Source: a virus (lineage: Duplodnaviria > Caudoviricetes). Taken from it: 64,000 bases of DNA. Positions 36,093 through 62,127 of the stretch are shown here, piece by piece (the stretch's first letter is position 1; the number at the start of each line of letters is the position of its first letter). The translations under genes were made by a program, and so were the position numbers. A model generated the notes under the pieces. The model was not told the origin of the DNA, did no database searches, and was given only the letters and a program-made list of their open reading frames with translations. The stretch covers positions 1-64,000 of IMG/VR virus record IMGVR_UViG_3300042973_000021. One strand, given 5' to 3'.

Positions 36093-36171
36093 TTGCAAAT
36101 AACTGAAAACCATAGTGGGCGGCGGCTGTCCCGCCGCTGTCCACGGCAATTTAAGAAAAGAGGTATACATC

Positions 36172-36369: not shown

Positions 36370-36437
36370 ATAAAACAATCGAAACGGCGGGCGGCAGGGT
36401 TCTCTCTGCCGCCTTTGCCAATTCAGGAGGAATTTGA

Positions 36438-40897: not shown

Positions 40898-41595
40898 TTT
40901 ATAAAAGAATGGAGCTCTGTATCGATTTTATCAAGGTAAATAACTGTAGCAAGATATGAAGATGCCATACTATTTTCTATAAGTGGGTAATCTCCATTTC
41001 CACAAAAAAGCAAAAGCTCTTTCATAAGAAGAATTTCACTCTGAGAAATTTCTTGTGTTGAACTATTACATACTTCATCAATTCTGGCCATCAGTTCATT
41101 TACATTGATGTTCCCGTAAAAATTTGTAATATCTGTCTTTATAAAATACTGACATTCCTGAGCATATGCATTGATTGCTTTATAAAAATTATCATAATCA
41201 TGCCCATATTTTGCGCGTGATTGGTTATAGTTCCCTGCGTAAAAAACTTCTATGTCATTTGGGCGTTCTGGAATATATTTACATGAAATTTCTTTTCCTA
41301 TTGATTGAAGCACCAAAAATAATAACGGAGAAATCAAAGCAGAATTCCGGAAGCTGCCGTCACCCTTTTGGATAAAATTTTCAGAATGGCGCATAACTTC
41401 AGGGAATAAAACAAAACCTCCAGAATCTATATACTTATCAAAGAATTCTCTGCTTTTTATCAGTTCCTTATCGTCGTCTGATATTTTTGTGTAAGGAAAC
41501 CACTGCAGATATGCTTTTAAAGAACCCTGCGAAATTGAAAAATACATTTCGCATATCTCTTTCCATACGTCATATGAAATACCAAACATCTAATC

Positions 41596-43725: not shown

Positions 43726-43730
43726 ATCCT

Positions 43731-46340: not shown

Positions 46341-46354
46341 AAGCTTCGCCTCCT

Positions 46355-49300
46355 TTACTTTATCTTCGCCAGAACATCCTGGAATATTGCGTAGTTGTGC
46401 TTCACGCCGTCATCCAAATCAATCGATATCATTTGATCCGCAAGATGGTGGATCTTTTCCTCATACAAACGTGTCTCTTCCGCCTGATCACGGAGCTTTG
46501 TGAGCTGCTTGTTCAGACGAACACGCTCCGATGTCGACGCACCATTGATCTGGCATTCAAGACCAGAAATTGCTGTGCGATACCTTGCCTGCTGCTCATG
46601 CACATAGTCCGTCCGAATGCGGGCAATCGTGTCCGGCTGGTAGCGGTGCATATAGATAAGGCACTTAAAGCCGTTCTTTTTGCCGGAGTCGAAAAGCCAG
46701 TAAATCGGGCGCTTCTGGTAGATCTTGCAATGATCCTTGTAAAAATCCTTTATGAAATAATTTCGGATGACTTCACGTGATGTAGCGCCTTTTTCACCCA
46801 GCGCATCTGCGATAAACTTCAGATTCTCCTCCAGTGTACCCTCGCCGTATACTGTGCGGACAAATTCCACAAATCTGCCTACAATGTCGTCTGTAAAATA
46901 CTCATCATCCGTAATGGGAATAATAGCGTCTTTGTCCGGAATGAAAGTTTTGTACTTCGAGCCGTCCCAATTTCCGCCAGCATAGGCGAGACCGTCTACA
47001 TCAAGAGAATACCTACCAAACATACAGCCAACTGCATAGGAAACAAACGAGCGTATATCCCGACCAAGGTCAGCCTTGCGGACGGTCACGTCCTTGTCAT
47101 CTTCCTCCGGCGTCAGCTCATCCTGCAAGCCGTAGATGTCGATAAAGATACGGTTCAGCTCTTCCTCATTAGCTTTCAGCTGATTGAAGCGGTCGTCGCA
47201 TTCCTGCTGCCACTGGGTGAAGGCTTCTTTGATGGTATGCGTGTTGCGAATCAGCGGATGCTTTTGAAAATCCCATGAGGTTTCAAAGGAGTCCCAGTCA
47301 TTTTTTGACAGCAAAACACATTCTTGTGCTCGAGATATAATTCCTGCCTGTTGATTTTCCTGAACTATAAGTACCGGAAAATTTTTAAAATCTCCTACCT
47401 GCAAATTGATCGTTGGATTCAACATCTTAAAAACGTAATTTGCCACAGGTGTTGATAAAATAGCCAACAGATACATCAAATTACATTTTCCTGTATAAAA
47501 CGCCGACATACCAGAAACATCATGTATACCACCTGTAGTCCTATACCGTATGCTGAAGCCACCGGATGTTATCAAACCCCAAGTAATTGCGTCTTTAAAA
47601 TACGAATCTGTATTTTGTGGCCGAGATCTAAGTTTTCCATGATTATCTACGAAATGTTTTATTTCAAATCCATCATTCTCCCAATTAACAAGATAGTCAT
47701 AATTTCCATACCAGTTTCGTCTTTCTCCTCCTTTGTTATAAGGAACCCACTTTTTCCCACTCTTAAGGAGTTCATCAGCATTTGCTGAATCATATTTACA
47801 TTTTTGCGGATCAACTTCATACCAAAATCTTAAAAACCTATTATTATCCCCAGTAGCCAGCCCCTGCTTAACAGATACCAACTTCTCTGTTGATAGCCCT
47901 TTCTCAAAGTCCGCCAGCATATTTGAACTCACCCAATACGCCACCGGGCTGCCGGGGATTTTGGAGAAGTTGGACTGGGAGGATTCGTAGAAGAAGCCAC
48001 AATCCGGATTTGATAATGCTTCCTTTACCTTCCTGCGCTGGACTTCCATGCCACCTGTGAAATCGGACAGGCGGAAATATTCGCCCTTACTTTCTGCTTT
48101 GCCATTTTTCAAAACAAATGAGCAAATCGGCACAGTAGCTTCTTCAAATGCGGAGTACTCGAACTGAATCAATGTAGTGATGGCTTTGTTATTAAGAATG
48201 TAATTCCGCAGCGGTTCGTATGTCTTGATAAACATCCAGACCATAGGCGTCATGAATCCGGAATATCCATTCTCCTCGCAGAATCCAAAATTTCTGTAAA
48301 CGAACACACTGAACAGGTCGCCTTTGTAATCGGCATAGTTGTCAGCGATATACTTCTTCAGCTTTGCGTCAAACTTATTGAGGTACGGCGGATTTGTTGC
48401 CACGACTGCATATTTGTCGGACAGAATCTTTGCCTCACGCACAAGCGGAAGAAGTGTACCCAATGCTGTATCTCTGTAGAGATCAACATCATTCTCGATT
48501 TCCGCAAACCGTGCAAAAAGTGCGTCAAAGTCCACAGGCTTTATCTGAATGATAGAGCCATATTCCTTGGCATCCCGTGTGTCATCTATGATTGACTGTA
48601 TATCTTTCTTGAGCTTGTCGCTGCCATTGGCAAAGTAATCAATGGTAAAGGAATCTACATGATTGCTTTCCTTTATCTCATAGAAATGTGGCTGGATGCC
48701 GCGTTTCAGGAAACGTCTGTCATACTGCATTGCCTTCATCATGATAGCAAAACTGGCGAGCTGCGCCGCACGTTCGTCAATGTCAAGTCCAAACAGATTA
48801 TTCTGTACAATAGAAGCCGCTGCTTCCCGTTCTGTATAACCGTATTCGGTATAGATTTTCTCAAGCACATCAAAGGTATAAACCCCAAAGTGAGCACTGC
48901 CCATACAAGGATCGAATACGGTGAGCTGTTCTGGAGTTATCTTTTCATTCACAATCGAAATATTGCCATCCTTCGGCGCGACAAAATACTCCAATACATT
49001 TTTCAGATTGCTGTTTGAATTCCGTTCAATCCAGTATCTTCCGACAGAATTATCAATGATATAGCGAACTACCCAATCAGGTGTAAATAGCTCCGTCGCA
49101 GCTGGAATATCTTCTTTCTCTACAGTTTTCTTTCCAATAGCATTTACTACCTTTTCATGTTTTTCCGACATGTAATACTGGTAAAGCCATCCAATAATTT
49201 CAATTTGCCCGCCCTCTTCTACATTCCAGTCTTTCTCCGGAATATCAGTAATCATTCGTTCCACAACGCTTCCTTCCCGGAGCAGATTGTCCGGGAAGAG

Positions 49301-49807
49301 CAACTCGGTGTAGTCTGCGATCTTCTGGAACATTCCCGGCAGCACACTGGAGAGTGCATTGCACTGCGTGATGATAAGGTACTTGAACAGTGCGTCGTCA
49401 TCATTAGCATCCTTCAGGGCATAGACTTTCTCCATGTCGAGACCGTCCAGATCCAGATGAATTGCCTCGGCCAGGATCTCCGGCTTGAACTTCCCGTTTT
49501 CATCCGTAAACACACGAATTCGGGACGGAAGGTAATTATTGACCTCCATAAACCGCAGAGCCGCAAAACGGTTGAACCAGGTATAGGCGACTTCCTCCAT
49601 CACCTGATCCTGTCCCTTTTCCTTTACCTGCCCGATCAGCGCCGCACGCTGCTTCTTCTCATCCGCTGTCAGAAGAACGCCATGCGCAGAGTCCGCATTT
49701 GGATCTGCATCCGCGCTGATTTCATATTGATCTGCCTTCTGCGACACGCGCTCAATGAGTTCGTTTCTTGCCCAGACGGCGTATTTCTTTATTGCATTCT
49801 TATCCAT
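46355..49807 (-). CDS. pglX: BREX-1 adenine methyltransferase PglX
   Basis: EEVAYTWFNRF, IGWLYQYY, NPPY, FSKIPGSP, KRPIYWLF and DLDDGVKHNY motifs. Confidence 0.95.
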   Translation of the reverse strand: MDKNAIKKYAVWARNELIERVSQKADQYEISADADPNADSAHGVLLTADEKKQRAALIGQVKEKGQDQVMEEVAYTWFNRFAALRFMEVNNYLPSRIRVFTDENGKFKPEILAEAIHLDLDGLDMEKVYALKDANDDDALFKYLIITQCNALSSVLPGMFQKIADYTELLFPDNLLREGSVVERMITDIPEKDWNVEEGGQIEIIGWLYQYYMSEKHEKVVNAIGKKTVEKEDIPAATELFTPDWVVRYIIDNSVGRYWIERNSNSNLKNVLEYFVAPKDGNISIVNEKITPEQLTVFDPCMGSAHFGVYTFDVLEKIYTEYGYTEREAAASIVQNNLFGLDIDERAAQLASFAIMMKAMQYDRRFLKRGIQPHFYEIKESNHVDSFTIDYFANGSDKLKKDIQSIIDDTRDAKEYGSIIQIKPVDFDALFARFAEIENDVDLYRDTALGTLLPLVREAKILSDKYAVVATNPPYLNKFDAKLKKYIADNYADYKGDLFSVFVYRNFGFCEENGYSGFMTPMVWMFIKTYEPLRNYILNNKAITTLIQFEYSAFEEATVPICSFVLKNGKAESKGEYFRLSDFTGGMEVQRRKVKEALSNPDCGFFYESSQSNFSKIPGSPVAYWVSSNMLADFEKGLSTEKLVSVKQGLATGDNNRFLRFWYEVDPQKCKYDSANADELLKSGKKWVPYNKGGERRNWYGNYDYLVNWENDGFEIKHFVDNHGKLRSRPQNTDSYFKDAITWGLITSGGFSIRYRTTGGIHDVSGMSAFYTGKCNLMYLLAILSTPVANYVFKMLNPTINLQVGDFKNFPVLIVQENQQAGIISRAQECVLLSKNDWDSFETSWDFQKHPLIRNTHTIKEAFTQWQQECDDRFNQLKANEEELNRIFIDIYGLQDELTPEEDDKDVTVRKADLGRDIRSFVSYAVGCMFGRYSLDVDGLAYAGGNWDGSKYKTFIPDKDAIIPITDDEYFTDDIVGRFVEFVRTVYGEGTLEENLKFIADALGEKGATSREVIRNYFIKDFYKDHCKIYQKRPIYWLFDSGKKNGFKCLIYMHRYQPDTIARIRTDYVHEQQARYRTAISGLECQINGASTSERVRLNKQLTKLRDQAEETRLYEEKIHHLADQMISIDLDDGVKHNYAIFQDVLAKIK

Positions 49808-49871
49808 GAAAGAGTCCTCTCTTAGTTCTACTCTGTATAACTTCTGCCAGCCAAATCAAAGATTTGGGGCA

Positions 49872-52800
49872 TCAGTTAAGTTTAATTCCGTCGCAGTCCT
49901 TCAGAAGCGCATTCAGGTAGGAGCGCATCCGCTCCACATAGTCATTTACATCGTCTTCACTTTCCAGCGTTGCCTGCTTGAAAATCGCCTGACGATAGCA
50001 GTTCTTGATATGCTTCTTCGGCTGATCCGGCTGCACAGGCTTTACCGGTTTCTTCGGCTTCTTTGCGGATTCAATCGCCGCAACGGTGTCGTCCTTGTAG
50101 TTCCACATCTGTGTGGTCATGCCGTCGAGCAGGACAATAGTTCTGGTGGTGGCGATCTGACTCTTCATCTGCGTGAAGTAGTTGTCCGCCTTCTCTATGA
50201 CATTTCTGAATTCGCCGCCTTCGCCTGCCGCCTGATGAATCTCAGCGAGGCACTGGCGCACAATCTCCAGAAGATCTGCACGCTTTTCCTCGAGCAGCTT
50301 ATTATGCCCGGCACGGACTTTATCCATCAGTCCATTGAGCTCCGGAATCTGTCTGTAGACAGCCGGATTGCTGCCGTTTACCAGTGTGATCTTCCGGATC
50401 TGGTTCAGCGCTTCATTGGTTTCCTCATCCTTCTGAATATACGGCAGGTCGTTCCGGAGATCGGCTTCCATCTTCACTGCAGAATCAAACACCGTAACCT
50501 GGTTCTTAAAGAACGCTTCGACCGGCTGCATGTCGTCCTTGCTGTCAAACAGCTTCGTTTCGTCTGCTACCAGACGGTCAATCAGCGCGATGTCGTCCTT
50601 CTCCTGCGAGAGCACGTCGTCCATCAGCTTGATGGCTGCTGTTACCTTGTCGTGATCCGGGTATTTGTGGCCCGCATACCGGCTGTTCAGTTCCTCGTAA
50701 TGCTGCTTCTGATCTTTGAACTTGTCCAGAATCAGCTTAACGAGAGCATCCTGATCATCTGGCACGTCCATGATGTCGAAGTACTCCCGCATGATCTCTT
50801 TTGCGGCTTTCATTTTCTGCGCGGAGGCAGACTGCTTCATGGAAATCATGGCCTTGCCGCGCTCTGTCTTTTTGCGGAGCATATCCGGAAGCTTCGGATT
50901 GTCCGGGCGAATCTGTGCGCCGCCGTATTTAATCGTAACCTTCTGCTGATAAATCAGAAGTGCCACAACCGCGGCGATGTCGATTTCCTTCCAGCCGTAC
51001 GGAATCTTCTGATAGCGCGTCTGGATGTCGTCCATCGAGGTCGGAAGCTTCTTCATGGACTGCATTTCGAGGTACTCCTCGACCTTGGCAGCAGCATCAC
51101 GGTTGTTCTCCATACCGGCCATTTCCGGATTGGTTCCGCGCAGAATCTCGATGATATCTGCATCCGTTTCCGCATTCTTTGTAATCAGGTCGAGCTCGCT
51201 GTAGACGTGCGCCACAAGATATTCGAGAGCTTGATCAATCTTGGAAACCGGCGTTCCGCTCTTGATTTCGATATGCTCGCCGTCTACATAGAACTCCGCA
51301 CCGGCGATGGCTTTCTCAAGTTCTTCCTTGGCGGAGGTTTCATACTTTCCGGCCTCGTCCTGCTGGTCGCGAATGATGTCCTGCACGGATTTCGCCAGCT
51401 GATTCACATTGCGCTGCTTCACATACTTGCGAATCTTCATGGCGTTTTCCAGAGACTCGTAGTATGGCGTATCTGCGAGCACGACAATGGCGGCTCCCTT
51501 GGATTCCGTCATCAGACGCAGTTCCTGCTTGTCCGTCACGTCCGTAGCTACTGTTAGGAAGCGGAGCGTCATGCCACCAGTCACCGCACCGATGGAAGTG
51601 GAATCCACCATCTCATCAAACGGGAAGTCGTATTTCCCATACCGGTATTTCTTCTGTGTATAGATATCGCCGAAGATCATCTGCCCGATACGCTCAACGA
51701 TCTTGGCGGTATCTACAGATGTATTCGCGATGTCTCGCGCAATATCCTGCTCCTCATCGGTGAGGAAGATATAGGCATCGCCGCGGCGGTCAATATAGTT
51801 CTGGCTCTTCAGGCGGTCGAGCGACTTCTGCACCGTCTGCCGGAGCTCGATCTTATCCGTCCGGATATCATCCGACATCAGAATGACGATGTTATCAAGG
51901 TTTGCCTTTACATCATCGATGTAGCGAATGAGGTAGAGGAGCTTTAATACCTTGACGTCATAGTCTTCAATGCCGTCATGATTATCCGCGGCCTTCTGGC
52001 AGCGCTCGATCACGCGGCGGATAGAGCCGTCGAGGAAGGAGTGCACGCTGTCATAGAAAGGATAGAGCGGAGCAATCGCATGCTCGTCCTTATCCTCGAT
52101 GGATTTTGCTACGATCTGGAAGCCGTCCAGCATCGACCGCTCTGCACCGGAGTAGTGCTTTCCGGCAGCGCCATGCTTGCGGATTTCCGAGAAAATCTTC
52201 TGAATCAGGATGAACTGATACGGCACAAACGGATAGTTCACAACGAACTCCTCCGGGCCGCTGTATCCCTTAATATCGAGCACAGAATCGGTGAAGCTGA
52301 ACAGGTTCTTCAGCACGTAGTCGTTGCGCTCATACAGGTCAGTAAGAACGGTCTTGGCTTCCGACTTCTTGGTGAGGAGTCTCTTCTGGATGACCTCATC
52401 CACGGCAGAGGAGGACAGGGAAAGTCTCGTCTTAAACCGCGCCTGAATGCGGGAGAACTCATCCATGCGAACCTTGATGATCTCGTCGATGGCTTCCTGT
52501 CCGGTGCAGACGATCCACACCTTGCCGCCGCATTCGCTTCCAACCTTCTCAACAAGGGACTGAAGGTTCAGGAGCAGGTTTGTATCCGTGCCAACATACT
52601 GGCCAACCTCGTCCACCATAAAGAGAAGCCTGAAGTTCTTCGGCTTGCTGTTCACATAGTCCTTAATCTCAGATACGAGCTGTGCAATGCTGATCTCCGC
52701 GGTCTCCGTTCCATTGAACCAGTTACGGGCAGCGGTCTCGCTCATGCCGAGCACTTCCTCGAGTGTCTCGACCACATCATCCTCGAAGAAGCCGAAGGAT

Positions 52801-53387
52801 TCTCTTGTCTCCACCCACGGAGCGCCGTTCTTTTCTTCAAACACACGGCGGAATTCTTCTGTCTTTCCCTGTTTTGCGACGAACTGCTCCAGCTTTGCCA
52901 CCTTCAGGTCCTCCCCGAGAAAGCCGAGATGGTTATAGAACATCTTCGCAAAAACCTTCAGCACAGCGGTATTGTCCTTATTGCTGAAGCCTTCAATATC
53001 GATATTGAAAAGGATTGTCTCCGTCGGTGCCTTCGTCGCCTTGTCGATCAGCATGAAGGTGGCCGGATCATCCGCAAATTTCTTGCGGAACCGCTCGACC
53101 GTAGACATGCCGTTGATGGTCCTGTTTTCCAGAATATAGGAGAGCATCTTCAAGAAGTGAGATTTACCACTTCCAAAGAAGCCGGAAATCCAGACGCCGA
53201 TATCCGCTGTCGGCGTATCAAAAGCGTCGTCGTAATAATTGAAGAAGGTAATGAAATGCCGCTTCAATTCGCGCGTAATGACATACTCGTTTAATTCCTG
53301 CTCGGTTGTCGTGTCTTCCTGGTCTACTTTGATGACACCATTTATTTTTCGGTTGATGTCATCGACAAACATGTCCTGAATTCTCAT
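49872..53387 (-). CDS. brxC: BREX ATPase BrxC
   Basis: INGVIKV, WISGFFGSGKSH, VDEVGQY and YPFVPYQ motifs. Confidence 0.95.
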   Translation of the reverse strand: MRIQDMFVDDINRKINGVIKVDQEDTTTEQELNEYVITRELKRHFITFFNYYDDAFDTPTADIGVWISGFFGSGKSHFLKMLSYILENRTINGMSTVERFRKKFADDPATFMLIDKATKAPTETILFNIDIEGFSNKDNTAVLKVFAKMFYNHLGFLGEDLKVAKLEQFVAKQGKTEEFRRVFEEKNGAPWVETRESFGFFEDDVVETLEEVLGMSETAARNWFNGTETAEISIAQLVSEIKDYVNSKPKNFRLLFMVDEVGQYVGTDTNLLLNLQSLVEKVGSECGGKVWIVCTGQEAIDEIIKVRMDEFSRIQARFKTRLSLSSSAVDEVIQKRLLTKKSEAKTVLTDLYERNDYVLKNLFSFTDSVLDIKGYSGPEEFVVNYPFVPYQFILIQKIFSEIRKHGAAGKHYSGAERSMLDGFQIVAKSIEDKDEHAIAPLYPFYDSVHSFLDGSIRRVIERCQKAADNHDGIEDYDVKVLKLLYLIRYIDDVKANLDNIVILMSDDIRTDKIELRQTVQKSLDRLKSQNYIDRRGDAYIFLTDEEQDIARDIANTSVDTAKIVERIGQMIFGDIYTQKKYRYGKYDFPFDEMVDSTSIGAVTGGMTLRFLTVATDVTDKQELRLMTESKGAAIVVLADTPYYESLENAMKIRKYVKQRNVNQLAKSVQDIIRDQQDEAGKYETSAKEELEKAIAGAEFYVDGEHIEIKSGTPVSKIDQALEYLVAHVYSELDLITKNAETDADIIEILRGTNPEMAGMENNRDAAAKVEEYLEMQSMKKLPTSMDDIQTRYQKIPYGWKEIDIAAVVALLIYQQKVTIKYGGAQIRPDNPKLPDMLRKKTERGKAMISMKQSASAQKMKAAKEIMREYFDIMDVPDDQDALVKLILDKFKDQKQHYEELNSRYAGHKYPDHDKVTAAIKLMDDVLSQEKDDIALIDRLVADETKLFDSKDDMQPVEAFFKNQVTVFDSAVKMEADLRNDLPYIQKDEETNEALNQIRKITLVNGSNPAVYRQIPELNGLMDKVRAGHNKLLEEKRADLLEIVRQCLAEIHQAAGEGGEFRNVIEKADNYFTQMKSQIATTRTIVLLDGMTTQMWNYKDDTVAAIESAKKPKKPVKPVQPDQPKKHIKNCYRQAIFKQATLESEDDVNDYVERMRSYLNALLKDCDGIKLN

Positions 53388-53400
53388 TTGGCGGCTCCTC

Positions 53401-53961
53401 CTATATCACATTGAACGCCCTGTAATAAGGGTTCGGTTTTAATCGGTCAAACAGCTTCACATGCCTTCCGTCGAATGTTCCCGGATACATTACGAGAATC
53501 GGAACACCGCCGACTCTCGGCTGCAGGGCTTCCAGAAGCATATGGATACGCATGAATGGGAACACATCACCCACACCTGTCAGAAGCAGAACATCTCCCT
53601 TTTCCGGCGGCGTGCTGCAGATCTTATCTACATAGGCCTGCACATTGATGGATTTTTCGATCATCTTCTGCAGCTGATCCTTCCCGCGCTTTTTCTCCTG
53701 ATCTGCCATGCGGGAAAGAATCCTCTTGTCCTCACAGCACTGCAGGAAGATCTCATATAAATTATTTTCTTTCAGACGGCACGGCAGTGTCTGGTCTGTT
53801 AGAATCTGCCGCACGAAGTGACGGACACGCATTTCATCCCTCGCTTCATAGCAGAACATCCTGATATTTACTTCGTTGGACAAGCCGTTTCCTTCCAGAA
53901 AATCCGGGTCCTTCAGGAGATCACGCACCCTGTCCAGACGTTCATCTATATTTCCTTCCAT
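53401..53961 (-). CDS. brxB: BREX protein BrxB (DUF1788)
   Basis: GLSNEV, LTGVGDVFPFMR, MYPG and YYRAF motifs. Confidence 0.92.
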   Translation of the reverse strand: MEGNIDERLDRVRDLLKDPDFLEGNGLSNEVNIRMFCYEARDEMRVRHFVRQILTDQTLPCRLKENNLYEIFLQCCEDKRILSRMADQEKKRGKDQLQKMIEKSINVQAYVDKICSTPPEKGDVLLLTGVGDVFPFMRIHMLLEALQPRVGGVPILVMYPGTFDGRHVKLFDRLKPNPYYRAFNVI

Positions 53962-53969
53962 GTTTCCTC

Positions 53970-54599
53970 CTACGACAGGCAGTTGAAGGCTGGCAGAGCC
54001 TCCGTCGTCCCGTCGTTCCTGATCGCGTTTTCAAGTACCGGGCTAATCAGCACCGGATTCAGATGATCCGCCTTCGTGCTGTCCAGATATTCATTCTCTA
54101 CGAGTGTTTTCGTCAGCACCTGCCGAACCTTCGTAATAGTGGAATCACTCCACGTGGCCACCCAGTCGTCCTGCTCCTGCAGCCGCATGAAGAATGTGTT
54201 CAGATCCACCCTGCCGAACGAGCTGTCGAGTTTCTGATATTTCTCTCCGATGACCGTCAGCATAAAGTCCCATACCAGACGGTACTGCCGCATCATGGCA
54301 TACAGACAGATCTGCTTTGCCACATCACTCGGCTGCGTCGCAATGGCCGTAACAAGCGAATCGTCCTCCATTGCTTCAAGCCTCCGGATGCAGGCAAGCG
54401 CCATCTTACGGACGGACTTTTCCGTCGGATACTGAAACAGATTCTCCGACACGATGTGTTCAACCACAGCATCCTTATCAAGCCCGTCGTTTACGAGCTT
54501 TGCCGTAGTACGCATTTCATAAAACAAAAACTGTTCCCGCGTAATCGCGGCATTATAAGGACTGGCTTCTTTGAGTGCCTTGTTTGTACTTTGCGGCAT
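53970..54599 (-). CDS. brxA: BREX protein BrxA (DUF1819)
   Basis: EQFLFYE, ENLFQY and WSDSTITK motifs. First gene of the BREX order. Confidence 0.9.
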   Translation of the reverse strand: MPQSTNKALKEASPYNAAITREQFLFYEMRTTAKLVNDGLDKDAVVEHIVSENLFQYPTEKSVRKMALACIRRLEAMEDDSLVTAIATQPSDVAKQICLYAMMRQYRLVWDFMLTVIGEKYQKLDSSFGRVDLNTFFMRLQEQDDWVATWSDSTITKVRQVLTKTLVENEYLDSTKADHLNPVLISPVLENAIRNDGTTEALPAFNCLS

Positions 54600-54843
54600 T
54601 CTTCTTTTCCTCCGGTTTATTGGCGGCTCCCTTTTCATCATCATCCGGAACCGTTTCTACAATTTCATTAATATTGCAGTTCAATGCTTCGCAGATCTTC
54701 AAAAGCACATCGGTCGTCAGGTTTTCGCCTTTGCCGAGCTTCGCAAGGGAAGCTGTGCTGATCCCACTTAATTCCCGCAAATCCTTCTTTGACATTTCCC
54801 GTTTTGCAAGTATTACCCATAAGGGTCTGTAACTGATACGCAT
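54553..54843 (-). CDS. XRE/Cro-like HTH regulator
   Basis: ISYRPLW..MSKKDL..GISTASLAKLGKGENLTTDVLLKICEAL. GGAGG RBS. Confidence 0.85.
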   Translation of the reverse strand: MRISYRPLWVILAKREMSKKDLRELSGISTASLAKLGKGENLTTDVLLKICEALNCNINEIVETVPDDDEKGAANKPEEKKNAAKYKQGTQRSQSL

Positions 54844-54859
54844 ACGCACCTCCATCAGT

Positions 54860-56575
54860 TTATTTCTCGTCATCCTCTGACGGCACTTCGCCCGACTCGT
54901 TTTCTGTCTTCTTAGCCCATGACCATCCGAACAGCTCTCCGCCATCGCTATGAAGTTCGATCACGCGGGTATCGTAGACTGTCTTTGCTGTATATTCCGT
55001 AAACGCCTTATGCTTATCGAACGATATGAAGACCTGCTTCCCGCTGTTCACGTAGAGCTGCATGATCTTATCAATCGGCAGGTCAGCTATGTTCTTGAAG
55101 ATCAGGGAGTCATGAACGATAAACGGAAGCTCCGTAGTCTTGAATACACTCAGGTCAAAAATGATGAGATTCTTATAATTTTCTCCTGTGCCAGAATTCC
55201 AGTCACAGCCGAATGTATATTTCGGATTTCCATTCTTTGCATCTGAGAATTTAATCTCAGGAGCATACTGTTTTCCATCGTATATAAAGTCGTTCATCCG
55301 GACCATTTCCTGATTGATTATGGTCTGAATGGTATCCAGCTGGCTCTTTCTGGCATCCTCCATGCGGGTCTTGGCGTCTTTAGTCTCATTGGCAAGTTTC
55401 TGGGATTCATCATATCCTTCATTCTGCGTTTTCAGGAAATTGATCCTGCTGCGCAGCCGGACCGTTTCATCCAGAAACTTCTTCGAGACATGTGTCGGAA
55501 CACCAAGCTTACGCTGTTCTTCCTCCAGCCGCTGCATTTCCTTCGTAGATTCAGCGATGAGAGCTTCCAGCCTCTGTACTTCTTCCGACATCTCATCCGT
55601 CAGGATGGTCTGCATCTTCTTATGGAAATGTTCGATGGTTTCGAGCTTTTCAATATCGGCGTCAGGGAAGAACTCCCGAAGGTCCTGAATATCGTCGGAT
55701 GTTGGCGTCAGGCCTTCCTCAAGGTTTGCCTTGACGGCATTCAGCTGCGATACGAGCCTTGTTCTGCGCCGCTTAAGGACAGTGATCTGTCCCTTGATTT
55801 CCGCTGCCTTATCAAGCTGAGCGGTATCCGCCTCCGCGAGAGAACTGTCTTCTTTATCAAGAAGCTCCTCCAGCTGCTTTTCGAGTTCTTCGATTTCCTT
55901 GGTATTGGCCTTGACCTGTTTCTTCGTCCTCGCAACGGTTACAATTTCTCCCAGATTGGTGGCGGTTATTCTGACGGTTTTGCGTTTGTTCTTTGCTTTG
56001 TAGAAATCCTCATACTCCTTCACAAGGTCATAAACGCCGTAGATCTGCTCCAGCGCCTTAATCGCATCCGCATCCGGCTCTTTGCCATATTGCAGCGGAA
56101 ACTCCTCGCTGTAATTATGCCTGCCGTAGATTCTCGCGAAGCGTCCTACCAGGCTGCGCCAGCTGCACTGCGCTGTCTGAATTTGATAGGAGGCAAAGAG
56201 ATGATCCTGAAAATCAGTCAGCGGCATCGGATCGCCGATCTCGTTATAATTCTCATCGCATATACTGACATGAGTAGGGTCCAGCGTGCTTCTGGAATAA
56301 TACTCGATACGCTCTCCAAACTTGAAAGCGAACTTGATGACGTGGTTTCCGACAAATTTGACTACGTTATTTTTTGTTTTCTCACTGTCCAGATAATCGC
56401 CGCCGCCAAAGCAGAAATCCACTGCCAGAAGAAAAGTGGATTTTCCGATGGAGTTTTCACCCTGCTTATCGCCAAGGACAGTGTTCAGACCCGGTCGGAA
56501 CCTAATCCGTCCTCTCGGGACACGCTGCCCGTTTATGGTTTCAGCGAACTGGTCGCATTCTATTTCATACAACAT
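54860..56575 (-). CDS. SMC-like ABC ATPase (DUF2326; ABC-three-component/Lamassu LmuB-like)
   Basis: NSIGKST Walker A, long coiled coil, SGTGE signature, FIVHDS Walker B. Confidence 0.85.
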   Translation of the reverse strand: MLYEIECDQFAETINGQRVPRGRIRFRPGLNTVLGDKQGENSIGKSTFLLAVDFCFGGGDYLDSEKTKNNVVKFVGNHVIKFAFKFGERIEYYSRSTLDPTHVSICDENYNEIGDPMPLTDFQDHLFASYQIQTAQCSWRSLVGRFARIYGRHNYSEEFPLQYGKEPDADAIKALEQIYGVYDLVKEYEDFYKAKNKRKTVRITATNLGEIVTVARTKKQVKANTKEIEELEKQLEELLDKEDSSLAEADTAQLDKAAEIKGQITVLKRRRTRLVSQLNAVKANLEEGLTPTSDDIQDLREFFPDADIEKLETIEHFHKKMQTILTDEMSEEVQRLEALIAESTKEMQRLEEEQRKLGVPTHVSKKFLDETVRLRSRINFLKTQNEGYDESQKLANETKDAKTRMEDARKSQLDTIQTIINQEMVRMNDFIYDGKQYAPEIKFSDAKNGNPKYTFGCDWNSGTGENYKNLIIFDLSVFKTTELPFIVHDSLIFKNIADLPIDKIMQLYVNSGKQVFISFDKHKAFTEYTAKTVYDTRVIELHSDGGELFGWSWAKKTENESGEVPSEDDEK

Positions 56576-56792
56576 AGCGCAGTACTTCCTCATTTTCGTC
56601 GTATTCAATCTTTCTAAGTGCATATAAGCAGTCGAGCACATCTATGAATTCATTTACGCCGTCCATCTTCTTTATCACGCGCCGGTACAGCTCATGCACG
56701 CTTAAAGGCTCTTTCCGCAGTTCCTTCAGCACGACAGGGAACTTGGAAAGTGTGCTCTCGTTATATGAGTAAAGCTTATTCGGCAATAACAT
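56565..56792 (-). CDS. ABC-three-component middle component (LmuC-like)
   Basis: 75 aa LPNKLYSYNES..LDCLYAL..I, coupled between effector and ATPase. Confidence 0.75.
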   Translation of the reverse strand: MLLPNKLYSYNESTLSKFPVVLKELRKEPLSVHELYRRVIKKMDGVNEFIDVLDCLYALRKIEYDENEEVLRYVV

Positions 56793-57912
56793 CGAATGCC
56801 TCACATTTCTGCGTGAAATATGCGATGACGATCTCGCAGTCACGCCATTTTTCATTTGTTGCGTCATACAGCCACTTCGTCATCTCATAAAAGATCTGGT
56901 CCTGACTGTATCCCTTATCTCGGAAACTCACATACATATACCGAACCTGCTGGCAGAACGGATTAAACCGCAGCTTGCCCTCACGCCCCATCTCCTGAAA
57001 GACCTCATGGACGTCATTGAAATAAACATTCACATCTGTCTTGATACGAAGATACAGTGCAAAATCGCTTATTTTCTGTTTCACAGGAACCGGATCGTAA
57101 TTCAGGTCAATATCTGTGGGAGGCGTGATGAAAGGGATCTTTTCTATTACGCGCCGGACGCCTTCCTGCACATGTTGATCGGCTCGAATTTCCTGATCTT
57201 CATGAGCATTGATTAGAGACTCCTTTATTTCCATCATCCGGGAAATATCATCAGGAGTCTTAAGAGCAGCGTACTTTGCCGCGCATTCCGGGCAAAGCGC
57301 GATTAGATTGGATGGCTCATTGGAAGAATTGCTCGGATCAATAACTGCGACGTCATAGATCAGCTCGGTATGTCCGTCACGGTATGTAAAAAGTGATTTC
57401 TGGCATCCGTCATTTGGGCATACACTTCCGGTTTCTGCAACGAGGCCTATACCGTATTTTTCTTTCAATGTTGCCATCTGAATGGCAGGGACACCGCCGC
57501 TTGTTGCTGCAAGGGTGGTGTCTTTTGTTTTTGGTGCAGCCGCATGGTCGATGATGTCCTTGAACCGAGCTGCTATGCATGAGCAGTAATTACTGCTGTC
57601 AATGTCAGGAAACCACGGCTTAAACGAATCAAAGAGATACTCAATCGTGTCATCGGAATCCGTCTGAATGTATTTAGCAAAATTCCCGGTATCGAGAGAG
57701 CCGGAAATCTTGGAGGCGAGTTCCGATATGTCATTCTGTCCGTAGTAGTAGGCCTTATAAGTCCGTGGCAGGGTTTCATCAACGGGATCGTCTTCAGATT
57801 CTGGCAAATAGATCTTTTCAAATAATTCTTTGGCAAAAACCTCAACTTTTCTGTTCCGCCGATACTTCGTCGAAAGCAGCTTCGCGAAGATTTCGAATTC
57901 AGTATCTGCCAA
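56776..57912 (-). CDS. ABC-three-component effector (N-terminal domain + degenerate HNH/Zn module + C-terminal domain; LmuA-like)
   Basis: TTG start after GGAGG. CPNDGC..NLIALCPEC module and C-terminal CEIVIAYFTQKCEAF. Confidence 0.75.
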   Translation of the reverse strand: MADTEFEIFAKLLSTKYRRNRKVEVFAKELFEKIYLPESEDDPVDETLPRTYKAYYYGQNDISELASKISGSLDTGNFAKYIQTDSDDTIEYLFDSFKPWFPDIDSSNYCSCIAARFKDIIDHAAAPKTKDTTLAATSGGVPAIQMATLKEKYGIGLVAETGSVCPNDGCQKSLFTYRDGHTELIYDVAVIDPSNSSNEPSNLIALCPECAAKYAALKTPDDISRMMEIKESLINAHEDQEIRADQHVQEGVRRVIEKIPFITPPTDIDLNYDPVPVKQKISDFALYLRIKTDVNVYFNDVHEVFQEMGREGKLRFNPFCQQVRYMYVSFRDKGYSQDQIFYEMTKWLYDATNEKWRDCEIVIAYFTQKCEAFDVIAE

Positions 57913-57937
57913 TAGAGATCCCTCCTTCCATGCGTAC

Positions 57938-57967
57938 ATGTACGGTCATGTACAGTCGTGTACTCTC
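57938..57967. repeat. Three tandem 10-bp imperfect repeats (putative operator)
   Basis: ATGTACGGTC / ATGTACAGTC / GTGTACTCTC. Confidence 0.65.
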
Positions 57968-58050
57968 GGGAGCGGTGAAAAATGCCGTTTCCCGTATACT
58001 CAAGATACAGGAAGGAGATGAACCGTCCGACATGAAACCGATGCTATTTA

Positions 58051-58079
58051 ATTTTACCACAGTTTCGCACGATGGTCAA
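58051..58079 (-). promoter_or_regulatory. SigA-type promoter of the defence operon
   Basis: TTGACC-17 bp-TAAAAT with extended -10 TG on the minus strand. Confidence 0.75.
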
Positions 58080-58139
58080 TCTTAAATTCGTCATCGCAAA
58101 TTATTTTACAGCGATGCAACAATTTATTCATTTCCTGTA

Positions 58140-58370
58140 ACGCGTCCCGAGCACGACGTTAAAAGGCTCTCCTGAACCTGACTCACCTTCTTCGTGGCCA
58201 CGAGGTGTGTTCGTAGTCAGGCGATGGAAAGACAAATGAATAGAGTGCCAGCTTACGAACGGCTGGTCACCGAAATGAGGCGGAGCAATCCGCATGAGGT
58301 GACCGACGATGTCTAACACAACTGGCAGCCATATGGGTGGTCTCCGCCTCGGTTTGAAAACCGAAAGGAG
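58140..58370 (+). ncRNA. Candidate structured RNA leader
   Basis: Multiple exact helices, two potential pseudoknots and a GCAA tetraloop upstream of the sigma-like gene. Family not identified. Confidence 0.5.
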
Positions 58371-58379
58371 ATCGCTTAT

Positions 58380-59033
58380 ATGGCAATCAAAGACAACAAC
58401 TGGAAATCTTACAATGACGCGCCGCTGAAGGATGGCGAGGTTCTCGTACCTCAGCTGGTAAGCAAGGAGTACGCAATGGGCCTCAAGGCCAATATGTCGA
58501 ACCTGAGAACGTGGGAAAAAAGCGGCATCAGTTATCTGGTGATGTTCATCCCGGTGCCAAAAGATCAGGAGAAGCAGGCATGGTCTATCTTCAATGTTGA
58601 GGTGAACGAACTTCTCGATGAGAAGCTCGGGCCGAACAGATTCAGCCGTTGCATGGTCCCGCAGCCGGATGGCAGCAAGAATCCCTGCCCGAAGAAAAAT
58701 GGCAATAATCATGAATGCTGTGCCAACTGCCCGTTCCGTAATATTTACGAGAAGGAAGATCGCAGCATGGTGTACTGGAGTCAGCTTGAGGAAACCGAAT
58801 ATGCTGGAGGCGTTGAATCTCACGCCGATGATGATTATAAGGTCGAGGCCCTTCTGGAAGACCTGATCAACGAACTTGAACAAAAGAATCCGAAGCTCGC
58901 ACGTATCGTCACTCTCGGTTACGCCGGGTACAGCAAGGCAGAAATCTTCGAAATGATCGGCGTTCAGAAGACGCAGGGATATGACCTGTTCAAAGAAGCC
59001 GAACGTCTGACGAAGGAGTTCCTGTTCGACTAA
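58380..59033 (+). CDS. Sigma-70 region 4-like phage transcription factor with Cys-rich insert
   Basis: RC..CP..CCANCP Zn motif and C-terminal HTH (GYSKAEIFEMIGVQKTQGYD). AAGGAG RBS. Confidence 0.7.
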   Translation: MAIKDNNWKSYNDAPLKDGEVLVPQLVSKEYAMGLKANMSNLRTWEKSGISYLVMFIPVPKDQEKQAWSIFNVEVNELLDEKLGPNRFSRCMVPQPDGSKNPCPKKNGNNHECCANCPFRNIYEKEDRSMVYWSQLEETEYAGGVESHADDDYKVEALLEDLINELEQKNPKLARIVTLGYAGYSKAEIFEMIGVQKTQGYDLFKEAERLTKEFLFD

Positions 59034-59063
59034 TCGCTGAATTGAGATAATCTGTGCTGATTG

Positions 59064-59112
59064 GGCCGGATGCCTGACGCTGCGAAAGCGGCTGACGGTG
59101 TCCGGCCTTTTC
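59064..59112 (+). terminator. Terminator after the sigma-like gene
   Basis: GGCCGGA/TCCGGCC stem followed by TTTT. Confidence 0.6.
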
Positions 59113-59311
59113 TGTACCCGTACCCATAAACGATAGGCATACAATCACACGGTAAAAGGCTATCGTGTGATTATGGTTTCATTTCGCTTTCCTGACGCTC
59201 CGGACGTAAAAAGAGCAGCGGCTCAGACACATTCAATCTGAATACCGCTGCCGCTAAAAACCGCAGAAACGCTTGATTTGTCGGTGTTTTTCACATATAT
59301 GCTATCGCTTG

Positions 59312-59365
59312 ATTGTATCAAAATCGCGAGTCTTAGGTTCTGCAATATCTTTTTCAGTGTTTCTG
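59312..59365. other. Right attachment junction of inner prophage
   Basis: Arm attgtatcaaaatcgcgagtctta (59312-59335), core TTC (59338-59340), then LSR coding sequence resumes. Confidence 0.9.
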
Positions 59366-60092
59366 GTCTCCATTTGGCTTTGCCTGCCGCTGTAAGAATA
59401 CCGTCTGTTTCCAGCCCTCTTGCTATCTGTAAAAGGCTTGCTCCCTCAAGGTACTCTCTGTAAATCCGTTTAACAACCTCAGCACCCTTTGGTTCAATCA
59501 CTAGCTGCTTATTTTCATCCTTGGTGTATCCAAGGAAACGCTTGTGGTTGACCTGTACTTCACCTTGTTGATAGCGATACTGAATACCTAGCTTAACGTT
59601 CTGGCTTAAGGATTGGCTTTCTTGTTGGGCAAGGGATGCCATAATGGTCAGCAAGATTTCCCCCTTGGAATCCATGGTGTTGATATTCTCTTTCTCGAAG
59701 AACACAGCAACGTTTTTATCCTTTAATTGACGGATGTATTTAAGGCAGTCCAACGTGTTTCTAGCGAATCGGCTGATGGATTTTGTGATAATCATATCAA
59801 TATTGCCCGCCATACACTCTTCAATCATGCGGTTGAATTCATCACGCTTTTTGGTATTTGTACCTGTGATACCGTCATCCGCAAAAATTCCTGCCAATTC
59901 CCATTCCTTGTTCTTCTTAATATAATTTGTATAATGTTCAATCTGAATGTCATAGCTTGAAGCTTGCTCCTCACTATCCGTTGAAACACGACAGTAAGCA
60001 GCCACTCGTATTTTTGATTTGCTTTCACTATTTTTATTATTTCCAACCCGTTTAATTGCCGGAATCACTGTTACATTCCTACTTACCGCCAC
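59341..60092 (-). pseudogene. 5' half of outer-prophage large serine recombinase
   Basis: YCRVST catalytic domain through [12 protein letters not shown]. Homology stops at the att core. Confidence 0.95.
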
Positions 60093-60095
60093 TTG

Positions 60096-60509
60096 TTAGA
60101 CCTCACTTTCTATCAAACTGTAGGCATATTCTGCCTGCTTATATGGATCTTCATATTTTTGCACCAGAGGTTTTGCTTTGAACTTTACAGGGTAATCCCT
60201 TTCCGGTTCATCTTTAGGCTCCCATATCCTTCCGAGCTTTTCTGCTCGTTTTCGTTTTTCTACTCTGGCTTTTTCAAAGGTCTCTTCATCAATAATTGGA
60301 GGGTAGAATTCATCGCCCAAGTAATGCTTGTTCTGCAACATCTTACTTGCTGTGGCATGGTAGCAGTCTAGCCCAGCTTTTTTAGCAGCGCCCTTCAAAG
60401 AAAGTCCTGCTAAGTACCCTGAAAATAATTCTCTTACTTTTTCTGCTGCTATATCATCCACAACAGCCTTTCCATCTTCAATTCTATATCCATAGGGTGT
60501 GTGACCCAT
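60096..60509 (-). CDS. Small recombinase-domain-only protein
   Basis: PYGY..LQNKHYLGD..PPIIDEETF (LSR DNA-binding domain), no catalytic domain. Confidence 0.8.
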   Translation of the reverse strand: MGHTPYGYRIEDGKAVVDDIAAEKVRELFSGYLAGLSLKGAAKKAGLDCYHATASKMLQNKHYLGDEFYPPIIDEETFEKARVEKRKRAEKLGRIWEPKDEPERDYPVKFKAKPLVQKYEDPYKQAEYAYSLIESEV

Positions 60510-62075
60510 CTAATTCACCAACCTCTCCTTCAATGTGATTCCACATTTTAATTCAAATCCGACTTCCTCTCGTGAAAAAACAATAATCTTTTCTACGTAA
60601 TTTTCAAACAGCTCATCCTCATAGGCTGTGAGCATTTTGGACTTAGTGGCAAACTTAAGTAAACGGTCAACTTCGTCTACTTTTGCAAAATTGCCATTGA
60701 CGGAACGAGTAAGTTGATCCTTTTCAGCAAGAAGCCTTTCTCTTTCTGCTTCCAGTGAATTCTTTTCTTTATTAAACAGGGCAGGTTCCAGATACCCTTT
60801 GGCCATTAAATCCGTCAGCATCTGGCTCTGCTCCATGTTGTTTTCAATCTTAGTTTCCAATTCTTCAATTCTGCGAAAACTTGCCGCATTGTTCTGGTTA
60901 CGTAACCCATTCAAAAGTGGTCTTAATATGAATTTCTGACCGAAAATGAGTTTATTCATCATCGTGACAAATGCAGTCTTTGTATCATCATCTCGTATGA
61001 ACTGCATAGAACATTCCGTTATATTGCTTATATGCTTACTGCAGCACCAAGCAATGTATTTTCTTGGACCGGATGAATGAATCCGTCTTTTAAAGGTACT
61101 GCCACATTCCGAGCAGATAATTTTGCTAGAGAAAGCATATCGGTTTAGATATTTGCTGTTGCGCTTTTCGATGCCTTTTTCTTTTGCTCTCTGATTAAGA
61201 ATGGCATCTACAGCTTCAAAATCCTCATAGCTGATAATTGCCTCATGGTGGTTTTCTACTAGATACATATTTTTCTCACCATAATTGGTATGCCTGTTAA
61301 AATGGCTGTCAGTATAAGTCTTTTGCAAAATAACGTCGCCAGTATATTTTTCATTGGTCAGAATCCCTCGAATGGTAGTAGCCGTCCAACGGCCACCTCT
61401 TTTTGATGGGATACCCTTTTGATTAAGATTATTTGCAACTTTCTGTGTACCTTTGCCCGATAATACTTCTGCAAAAATATACTTTACAATTTCAGCCTGC
61501 TTAGGGATTACTTTCATTTGACCATCAATGTTTTGATACCCATATGGTGGGTAGGAAATTATAAAGGTTCCGTTTTGAAATCGTCTTTGAATGGCCCACT
61601 TCGTATTCTCTGAAATGGAAATTGACTCACTTTCTGCAAGCCCACTTAAAATGGAGAGCATCAATTCACTTTCCATTGAACCTGTATTGATGTTTTCCTT
61701 CTCAAAATAGATATGAACCCCAAGGTCTATCAGTTTTCGAACCATCTCCAAGCAGTCTGTAGTATTTCTCGCAAATCGGCTGATGGACTTTGTAATGATT
61801 AAGTCAATTCTCCCAGTTTCACAGTCTGATAACATTCTAAGTAGGTCAGAGCGGTTTTCCTTTTTCGTGCCGCTGATACCCTCGTCATAATATAAGCCTG
61901 CGTATTCCCATTCTGGATTTGCCTTTATGTAGCTCTCATAATGGGCCTTTTGTGCTTGCAGGCTGACAAGTTGTTCATCACTGCCTGTTGAAACTCGGCA
62001 ATAGGCAACTACTCGTGTTTTTGGCTTAATAAAAGAGTTGGCCGTATTTCCTTCTATTTTCGTTATCTTTTTCAT
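60510..62075 (-). CDS. Large serine recombinase (outer prophage)
   Basis: [23 protein letters not shown] and CSECG motifs. Confidence 0.93.
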   Translation of the reverse strand: MKKITKIEGNTANSFIKPKTRVVAYCRVSTGSDEQLVSLQAQKAHYESYIKANPEWEYAGLYYDEGISGTKKENRSDLLRMLSDCETGRIDLIITKSISRFARNTTDCLEMVRKLIDLGVHIYFEKENINTGSMESELMLSILSGLAESESISISENTKWAIQRRFQNGTFIISYPPYGYQNIDGQMKVIPKQAEIVKYIFAEVLSGKGTQKVANNLNQKGIPSKRGGRWTATTIRGILTNEKYTGDVILQKTYTDSHFNRHTNYGEKNMYLVENHHEAIISYEDFEAVDAILNQRAKEKGIEKRNSKYLNRYAFSSKIICSECGSTFKRRIHSSGPRKYIAWCCSKHISNITECSMQFIRDDDTKTAFVTMMNKLIFGQKFILRPLLNGLRNQNNAASFRRIEELETKIENNMEQSQMLTDLMAKGYLEPALFNKEKNSLEAERERLLAEKDQLTRSVNGNFAKVDEVDRLLKFATKSKMLTAYEDELFENYVEKIIVFSREEVGFELKCGITLKERLVN

Positions 62076-62127
62076 CCTCTCACCTCCTTCTTGGTAGGTC
62101 ACATATTACCTCTGAAACCCTTATATA

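Follow-up and report, generated by a model that had tools for sequence, protein, structure and literature searches.

Positions 58143-58384 of a 64,000-nucleotide stretch of prophage DNA (hereafter the window; it is the first 64 kb of the 162-kb IMG/VR provirus record IMGVR_UViG_3300042973_000021) are, with a probability that we put at roughly 0.8, a switch that controls translation in cis, belongs to the DUF2800-RNA superfamily, and stands directly before a prophage regulator gene whose product has 217 amino acids (aa). On sequence comparison this leader is a divergent branch of the catalogued DUF2800 RNA (Rfam RF02960) that lies below the Rfam cut-off, and not a wholly new element. In its predicted OFF state the Shine-Dalgarno sequence (SD) and the start codon are buried in a hairpin; in its predicted ON state a distant copy of the SD captures the sequence that would otherwise hide it. 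Covariation among relatives supports the two predicted pseudoknots of the leader, the helix that sequesters the SD and the AUG, and the long-range helix that competes with it. An earlier, sequence-only reading of the letters, made without database searches, had described an ornate, doubly pseudoknotted RNA with mutually exclusive pairings, positioned to gate translation of the downstream regulator, and this description is borne out by the covariation.

The Fold of the Leader

The flagged stretch is a 440-nt gap between a leftward defense gene and the rightward 217-aa gene. All of the pairings claimed for it in the sequence-only reading were located at their positions, and they are included among the elements listed below. 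Percentages refer to A9, the 24-sequence alignment of the window's own subfamily (W1), and MFE denotes the minimum free energy fold.

58143..58169, + strand: 5' module, with helix P0 (CGTC 58143-46 with GACG 58155-58) closing an 8-nt loop; 95.8% paired, 2/4 pairs covarying
58159-65, + strand: A-rich linker TTAAAAG of the 5' module
58149-52 with 58166-69, + strand: PK1, loop GAGC with GCTC; 90.6% paired
58167..58231, + strand: P1, a long hairpin of irregular shape whose outer helix joins 58167-72 to 58226-31 (MFE)
58177-83 with 58215-21, and 58184-88 with 58203-07, + strand: inner helices of P1, CCTGACT/AGTCAGG and CACCT/AGGTG (MFE)
58193-58202, + strand: palindromic tip of P1, CGTGGCCACG
58209-14, + strand: 3' internal loop of P1, GTTCGT
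58209..58260, + strand: PK2, pairing of GTTCGT 58209-14 (P1 internal loop) with ACGAAC 58255-60 (loop of the hairpin that follows)
58232..58247, + strand: conserved single-stranded junction containing ACAAATGAATAGAGT, which matches ACAAgUaAAUA of the RF02960 consensus in the cmscan alignment
58248-52 with 58262-66, + strand: local hairpin P2a, CCAGC/GCTGG, competing with long-range P2
58246-51 with 58322-27, + strand: long-range P2, TGCCAG/CTGGCA, competing with P2a
58265-71 with 58298-304, + strand: P3, GGTCACC/GGTGACC, enclosing P4
58280-84 with 58289-93, + strand: P4, GCGGA and TCCGC around the loop GCAA; P3 and P4 together correspond to P3/P4 of RF02960
58277-85, + strand: SD mimic (anti-anti-SD) GAGGCGGAG, the 5' strand of P4 plus flank
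58342..58350, + strand: anti-SD CTCCGCCTC, pairing with 58277-85 (the 9-bp ON helix) or, via CTCC, with the SD
58328..58384, + strand: sequestor hairpin, 58328-45 with 58367-84, burying the SD GGAG 58367-70 and the AUG 58380-82
58349-54 with 58359-64, + strand: inner hairpin of the sequestor, TCGGTT/AACCGA

P0 and PK1 together make a compact H-type pseudoknot. Over 58140-58385 the + strand folds with an MFE of -94.6 kcal/mol, as against -74.95 +/- 4.74 for 200 shuffled versions (z = -4.15, no shuffle being as good), and the minus strand folds more weakly (-86.9, z = -3.0). The MFE fold includes the 5' hairpin, P1, long-range P2, P3, P4, and the 18-bp sequestor, and in the full-length leader the SD and the AUG are paired with a probability of 1.0. 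Two corrections to the sequence-only reading are nevertheless required. Residue A58215 is common to two of the claimed helices, AGTCAGG and the seven-nucleotide word GTTCGTA 58209-15 that is complementary to TACGAAC 58254-60, and GG 58265-66 is common to the CCAGC/GCTGG hairpin and the GGTCACC stem; because each of these is used twice, the claimed pairs cannot all form at full length. Two features had also been overlooked, namely that the hairpin near the ribosome-binding site is an 18-bp helix that buries the AUG as well, and that the tip of P1 is palindromic.

Subfamilies and Covariation

The leader is kept 5' of genes that are merely 40-50% identical, in Clostridia of the rumen, the gut, and digesters and in the phages of these bacteria, and the 217-aa protein itself has 61 homolog clusters, all from Clostridia-type metagenomes. 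Relative loci were taken from genomes, viral contigs, metagenomes, and assemblies, and they showed two leader types, W1, the window type (24 sequences), and W2 (13); with the canonical RF02960 RNAs (29), collected for comparison, these make three related subfamilies. An IMG/VR pattern search returned 24 further distinct stretches that fit the W1 pattern, and A9 is made up of 20 pattern matches, the window, and three close relatives; A6 holds the 13 distinct W2 copies, and A4 is the canonical alignment, gathered from L028 (149 bits against RF02960) and about 30 more copies found by pattern search. A mixed W1 and W2 alignment made with MAFFT was misaligned in P1, and RNAalifold recovered from it just P0, a 3-bp helix, and the ON helix; the subfamilies were therefore scored separately. 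The leader had no blastn match among 50,697 phage records, and an RF02960 search of 150 Clostridia genomes gave a single canonical copy (L028) and no W-type copy at E <= 0.001.

All three subfamilies share one plan, in which the PK1-bearing 5' module (present in most copies) is followed by P1 with PK2, the junction, P3 enclosing P4, and the anti-SD. The 5' strand of P4 reads (A/G)CGGAG across the subfamilies, and the anti-SD is complementary both to this strand and to the real SD. The 5' module is found as well in W2 and in about two-thirds of the canonical DUF2800 RNAs, where it pairs TGAGCA with TGCTCA. The junction nucleotides AATA-AG are invariant in A9 and conserved in A4 and A6.

Covarying helices were found in each set. 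In W1, 94.3% of the alignment cells are paired (31-45% when the partners are slid), with 21 doubly changed pairs where shuffling gives 12.3; the corresponding values are 91.8% with 16 against 6.5 in W2, and 89.0% with 37 against 21.4 in the canonical set. For the first pseudoknot, two PK1 pairs of A9 occur as GC:11/AU:10/GU:3 and AU:14/GC:10, and a metatranscriptome allele carries a compensatory PK1 pair (58151 G>A with 58167 C>T). Within P1, the helix P1b is 96.4% paired in A9 with 4/7 pairs covarying, and P1c and P1d are 100% paired. PK2 is likewise 100% paired in A9, one of its pairs being UA:13/UG:6/CG:5; it reads TGTTCA:TGAACA in W2, it switches from GCTCAA:TTGAGC to TCCAGT:ACTGGA in the canonical RNAs (99.4% paired, 4/6 pairs covarying), and it appears in further lineages as CTGTCGAT:ATCGACAG, CACTTGT:ACAAGTG, GCTCG:CGAGC, and GTCGG:CCGAC. 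Its words thus differ wholly between lineages while their complementarity is kept. P3 and P4 are 100% paired in A9, where the search pattern fixed the 5' strands of both and left the 3' strand of P3 free. Long-range P2 covaries in the canonical RNAs (helix 6), and a short closing helix covaries in W2 (GU:8 AU:3 GC:2).

These alignments indicate that both competing states of the platform are under selection. The sequestor is 85.5% paired in A9 with 6 covarying pairs, the stretch that covers the AUG included, and CAU:AUG is conserved. Pairing in the ON helix is complete (100%) in W1 and likewise in W2, where the helix has 13 bp. Its pair 58279/58348 is AU:18, GC:4, GU:2 in A9, and since both positions are unpaired in the OFF fold this change can be explained by the ON helix alone. 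Across lineages mimic and anti-SD change jointly, from CGAAACGGAG/CTCCGTTTCG in the canonical RNAs to GAAGCGGAGAGCC/GGCTCTCCGCTTC and GAGGCGGAG/CTCCGCCTC. The leader always lies on the sense strand directly 5' of its gene, and it contains many G-U pairs, which would be A-C mismatches on the opposite strand.

Two other kinds of leader were met among these loci. Close homologs of the 217-aa gene (up to 93% identical) are preceded at L002:2670-3005, L127:3700-4003, L130:1-106, and L131:1210-1503 by an unrelated leader that has no Rfam match; it combines a terminator-like hairpin GGCTCTTGTGG..CACAGGAGCC and T run with an SD-sequestering hairpin of its own, TCCTCCTGT..ACAGGAGGA. Leaders seem to have been swapped among otherwise similar genes. 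In a branch of the family with a 179-aa protein, the leaders L123:3860-4003 and L024:620-767 keep an SD mimic AGAACGGAGG and a lock CTCCGTTCGG..AAACGGAGG; the platform and the P4-like mimic are present and the part with P1 and PK2 is apparently missing. Neither leader appears among the listed matches of R1 (a covariance model introduced below), nor L123 among those listed for RF02960, and both were excluded from the subfamily counts. In L123 the regulator gene is convergent with PolA-SSB-DUF2800.

Kinship with the DUF2800 RNA

At the gathering threshold Rfam matches nothing in the window or in the whole 162-kb record. A permissive search of 57800-58600 (801 nt) gave one meaningful match, RF02960 at 58171-58332, with 27.1 bits and E 0.012, where the gathering score is 60.2. 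The alignment runs through the whole model (1-158) and matches P1, the ACAA-U-AAUA junction, P2, and P4 with ACGGAG; P3 is shifted, yet present as GGTCACC/GGTGACC. Comparison with Rfam, which the sequence-only reading had proposed, thus yielded a kinship below the threshold and nothing above it. All tested W1 and W2 copies score 26-37 bits against RF02960, below 60.2, which is why Rfam annotation misses them. In the reverse direction, the model R1, built from W2 leaders only, gives the window 34.2 bits at E 7e-7. It also detects canonical copies, L039 and L108 among them, with 22-32 bits (E 3e-6 to 9e-4), and the hits are in the right place and on the right strand.

The downstream genes point the same way. 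Profile comparison (hhalign) of the 217-aa family (A1) with the proteins downstream of canonical copies (A5) gave a probability of 98% and E 3.1e-13 over 139 columns; plain BLASTP of the 217-aa protein against one canonical downstream protein found nothing, so that this homology is visible by profile comparison only. The first gene after the canonical copies is itself not DUF2800 but a regulator of the same kind, with four cysteines and a sigma-4-like domain (Cys4/sigma-4-like, 166-175 aa), and the W1 RNAs of viral contigs precede the same type of protein (167-176 aa). In the W1 relative L145 the order is RNA, sigma-like gene, a 139-aa gene, DUF2800, SSB, PolA, primase, and SNF2, in one colinear early operon. 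In the window the RNA precedes the 217-aa gene only, the DUF2800 gene lies at 34388-35509, and the region upstream of that gene (33000-34600) gave only noise against RF02960. From these contexts we conclude that the constant partner of the RNA is the regulator gene and not DUF2800.

The full-length alignment, the reciprocal detection by R1, the common pseudoknots and platform, and the homology of the downstream genes together tie the leader to RF02960, and the sequence-only statement that the RNA belonged to no known family does not survive them. That reading had itself held that a match to a described Rfam motif would take away the novelty, and most of it is indeed removed, since the leader relates to one. 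RF02960 is catalogued as a candidate cis-regulatory motif of Firmicutes (Rfam). A literature search on "DUF2800 motif" and "DUF2800 RNA" returned no paper, function, or ligand for it. We take RF02960 to stem from the 224-motif survey of Weinberg et al. 2017, the main text of which does not mention it.

Two more familiar identities were tried and set aside. A self-cleaving ribozyme, which the sequence-only reading had entertained, has no supporting feature, and no known ribozyme family matches the leader at E up to 10. The 5' module might have been an aptamer of the preQ1-I type, but no preQ1 family matches within 57800-58600 up to E 10, and the likeness is one of topology alone (stem, A-rich linker, loop pairing).

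A Model for the Proposed Switch

We propose that the 5' pseudoknot (P0/PK1), P1 with PK2, and P3/P4 form a sensor domain. In the OFF state P4 would be closed, and the anti-SD and its flanks would lie in the 18-bp hairpin with the SD and the AUG, so that ribosomes would be blocked from loading. Folding and covariation show this state, which is the thermodynamic ground state. In the ON state the SD mimic would quit P4 and pair with the anti-SD, which would remove the CTCC:GGAG part of the lock. Covariation shows the ON helix; its effect on translation would be the release of this lock. The earlier proposal of a conformational switch thus draws support from the folding and covariation of both states.

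In a nested model the OFF fold (-94.6 kcal/mol) is favored over the forced ON fold (-81.2), at a cost for the ON state of about 13 kcal/mol, which overstates the difference, since in a pseudoknot the ON helix could form alongside P3 and P2. A transcript cut off at 58352, which contains the anti-SD but still lacks the SD, adopts the ON helix. From the OFF ground state and the behavior of this transcript we infer a default-OFF switch that is decided kinetically. The choice would be made during transcription, which reaches the anti-SD about 20 nt ahead of the SD: if some factor held P3/P4/PK2 shut at this moment, the OFF state would follow, and without it a period open to translation would result. 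Such a factor could be a small molecule, a protein, or a second copy of the RNA. A conserved, structured putative aptamer with covariation, followed by an expression platform of mutually exclusive helices, is one mark of a metabolite-binding riboswitch, and the leader bears this mark.

Several points weigh against this model or dilute its support. The collection of the W1 and canonical sets by sequence pattern fixed some columns and inflates the percentages paired in P3/P4. Covariation in W1 cannot choose between P2a and long-range P2, since both are invariant there. The ON helix would be pseudoknotted with P3/P2, and its energy is not properly computable in a nested model. The outer part of the W1 sequestor (58330-38 with 58374-82, over the AUG) does not overlap the anti-SD, so that formation of the ON helix may not by itself be enough to free the start codon. 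Upstream of the leader no convincing sigma-70-like promoter was found on the + strand, only a leftward one at 58079-58051, and the contigs of metatranscriptomes that cover the region neither prove transcription nor give its strand.

Those contigs are a weak hint that leader and gene are transcribed. Two metatranscriptome assemblies from one fermentation sample have contigs over the gene (0 mismatches) and over the defense gene, the neighboring recombinase genes being uncovered, and one run has a 293-nt contig over 58090-58382 with a variant allele. Parts of 58015-58400 are without same-allele cover in X15 and X16, and X17 and X18 hold small pieces only, which is not evidence of absence. One X16 contig that matches 58549-59330 runs upstream into 37 unrelated letters; its divergence at 58549 points to a strain in that sample with a different 5' part of the gene or to an internal recombination joint. 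Just 5' of the leader, at 58092-58116, lies an inverted repeat CATCGC-N13-GCGATG, and similar (A)TCGCAA words are repeated before canonical DUF2800 RNAs that lack the 5' pseudoknot (L028, L042, L058, L109); the repeat may be an operator or an unusual promoter.

Other Explanations

The strongest competitor to a ligand-sensing leader, though a doubtful one, is a translational operator on which a phage protein, and not a metabolite, sets the ON and OFF states. This protein could be the gene's own Cys4/sigma-4-like product, in a case of autoregulation, or else the module's Enc34-type SSB or some other early protein. RNA and regulator gene stay together as one cassette in three RNA subfamilies and two protein subfamilies, the cysteine cluster of the product is typical of nucleic-acid-binding zinc ribbons, and for a phage-borne element a host metabolite is a less obvious signal. 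The arrangement of a 5' pseudoknot followed by the ribosome-binding region also recalls, by analogy, the operator of T4 gene 32. However, some close homologs of the gene (93% identical in L002; also in L127, L130, and L131) stand behind a different leader, from which it follows that the protein does not strictly need this RNA, and the high conservation of junction nucleotides across distant lineages is just as characteristic of small-molecule aptamers.

The palindromic tip of P1 raises a further, less probable explanation, that of RNA-RNA sensing. Two leaders would kiss through their tips or form an extended duplex, and expression would follow leader concentration, whether set by copy number, superinfection, or the state of induction. 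The tip is self-complementary in all subfamilies even though the words differ: TGATCA, TGGCCA, or GATC in the canonical RNAs, where a palindrome of at least 6 nt occurs in 25/29 copies against 1.9 expected; CCGG or TCCGGA in 13/13 W2 copies; and CGTGGCCACG, GTGGCCAC, or CCCGGCCGGG in 24/24 W1 copies (columns 136-144 of A4, 60-67 of A6, and 56-70 of A9). Control loops of the same RNAs are mostly unenriched, three of nine exceeding the shuffled 4-nt expectation. This pattern, far in excess of what shuffling gives, suggests either dimerization of the RNA by loop-loop contact or a site in the DNA for a dimeric protein. The HIV-1 dimerization loop has 9 nt with a central 6-nt palindrome, and the 9-nt canonical loop with its central 6-nt palindrome has an analogous layout. 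The W1 palindrome, on the other hand, can fold on itself and leave a 4-nt GGCC loop that is poor for kissing, and the tip may instead serve at the level of the DNA, where a dimeric protein or a methylase would recognize it. More speculative still, and correspondingly less likely, is the generalization that the whole DUF2800-RNA superfamily is a phage RNA sensor, in which leaders pair via the P1 tip and the lock on the first early regulator tracks leader concentration, as a gauge of copy number or superinfection, and no metabolite is involved. Were it true, very common gut and rumen phages would possess an RNA-only device for deciding between lysogeny and replication.

It is highly improbable that the element acts as DNA, as a single-stranded structure or as an origin or operator of the adjacent replication module, and is no mRNA leader at all. 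In its favor, the family is associated with the replication genes DUF2800-SSB-PolA, the P1 tip reads as a perfect palindrome in DNA, and the discovery method of Weinberg et al. also finds single-stranded DNA motifs (PMC5737381). Yet orientation and distance to the start codon are fixed, the SD and the AUG lie within covarying helices, and the fold suits one strand, as seen in its many strand-specific G-U pairs and in the weaker folding of the minus strand. In the window, 20 kb separate the element from the replication genes, and it still stands directly 5' of the regulator gene. That these are functionless chance hairpins of a GC-balanced intergenic region, short complementary words being common, is scarcely credible in view of the shuffle z-score, of the conservation of the leader before genes that share no more than 40-50% identity, and of the compensatory changes seen in every helix.

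The Regulator and Its Neighborhood

The product of the gene behind the leader has a beta-rich N-terminal domain, a cysteine cluster, and a C-terminal helix-turn-helix like that of sigma region 4. It has no Pfam match and a weak NCBIfam ECF match at residues 150-196. The AF2 model (pLDDT 79) shows the beta-rich domain, a poorly modeled Cys-rich linker, and a C-terminal four-helix domain; Foldseek of the model against the PDB gave no match at E <= 0.001, and the C-terminal domain fits sigma region 4 domains best, though weakly (E 0.19, TM by target 0.56-0.61). No sigma region 2 was found in the protein. The earlier description of a sigma-like master activator is therefore only partly borne out, the resemblance to sigma region 4 being confined to the C-terminal 70 aa or so.

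The principal neighbors are the following.

56776-57939, leftward: ABC-3C-type defense gene (Pfam CTD11), the 5' neighbor of the leader
58380-59033, + strand: 217-aa regulator gene, 3' of the leader
59040..59115 (59090-59107 plus T run): terminator-like hairpin that separates the regulator gene from the serine recombinase gene convergent with it
34388-35509, rightward: DUF2800 gene, part of the phage replication module

Because of the terminator-like hairpin and the convergent recombinase gene, the regulator is a one-gene unit in the window, 20 kb away from the replication genes. The replication module comprises DUF2800, the Enc34-type SSB, PolA, a D5-type primase, and an SNF2 helicase; the window also holds a 19-kb defense island (AbiA, BREX type 1, ABC-3C) and, elsewhere, lysis genes. 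Relative to colinear relatives such as L145, the module of the window (27851-38426) is split and turned: a 122-aa gene, DUF2800, SSB, and PolA run rightward from 34023, and primase, SNF2, and DUF1492 are read leftward from 33313. No more than 2 nt lie between the divergent starts (34020-34023). The regulator cassette lies beyond the defense island, 20 kb from the module, and the whole looks like an inversion or other rearrangement.

The slot directly 5' of the leader carries varied defense cargo. Here (38470-57939) it holds BREX, ABC-3C, and AbiA; relatives have NACHT/SNaCT14, LlaJI with AAA_5, AAA_13, or the type I restriction subunit HsdR (L145:225-2585; L125:1-3451; L127:1-3721; the loci of P0008 and P0060). 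At 59223-60509, beside an intact 530-aa large serine recombinase (60510-62102), two abutting open reading frames encode 289 aa (Resolvase and the start of a Recombinase domain) and 137 aa (a fragment of a Recombinase domain); they look like a single serine recombinase gene broken in two.

Significance and Comparison with Known Systems

The DUF2800 RNA has been a catalogued orphan, and its model captures one branch of a wider family, of which at least two other branches, represented here by 24 and by 13 distinct copies, lie below the Rfam cut-off. No new class of element is revealed. What is added to the Rfam model are two pseudoknots, an explicit platform of SD mimic, anti-SD, and SD, and covariation for both states. 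The gene controlled would be not DUF2800 but a Cys4/sigma-4-like regulator that heads the early replication genes of abundant Clostridia phages. The leader thus offers a concrete, mutable design for how prophages may silence an early regulator, and better seed alignments for the re-annotation of phages.

The closest known relative is RF02960 itself. The leader has in common with it a P1 that carries an internal loop on the 3' side, the junction ACAA-U-AAUA, P2, and an ACGGAG-bearing P4; its canonical copies share in addition PK2, the optional 5' pseudoknot, and the SD-mimic/anti-SD/SD platform. The downstream gene is homologous, and in W1 relatives the context of a phage replication module is alike. 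The Rfam model, by contrast, spans P1 to P4 only and is without pseudoknots, 5' module, or expression platform. The window also differs in that its P3 and P2 region is built differently, with the extended local hairpin CCAGC/GCTGG, its sequestor reaches to the AUG, and its gene is a one-gene unit 20 kb from DUF2800.

In its conserved self-complementary apical loop, which varies in sequence while remaining palindromic, the leader resembles the HIV-1 dimerization initiation site and the ROOL and GOLLD RNAs. The latter two are described as multimeric ornate bacterial RNAs (bioRxiv 10.1101/2024.12.08.627333). Unlike them, the present RNA is much smaller and clearly an mRNA leader, and its dimerization is a prediction.

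Translational control in phages is familiar from the operators of T4 gene 32 and regA and from the action of Mu Com on mom mRNA. The analogy with T4 gene 32 and Com/mom would lie in the leader of a phage mRNA that carries an H-type pseudoknot at its 5' end and hides its ribosome-binding site, and in neighboring genes that encode an SSB and a small zinc-binding regulator; the likeness is a general one, and there is no match of sequence or model.

In architecture the leader is also comparable with translational OFF riboswitches of the SAM-II/preQ1 and thiM types, in which a pseudoknotted sensor is likewise followed by covarying, exclusive helices that hide or free the SD. It differs from these in matching no Rfam riboswitch model up to E 10, and in an OFF state that is the ground state by more than 10 kcal/mol, an advantage so large that control must be kinetic or must need an active opener.

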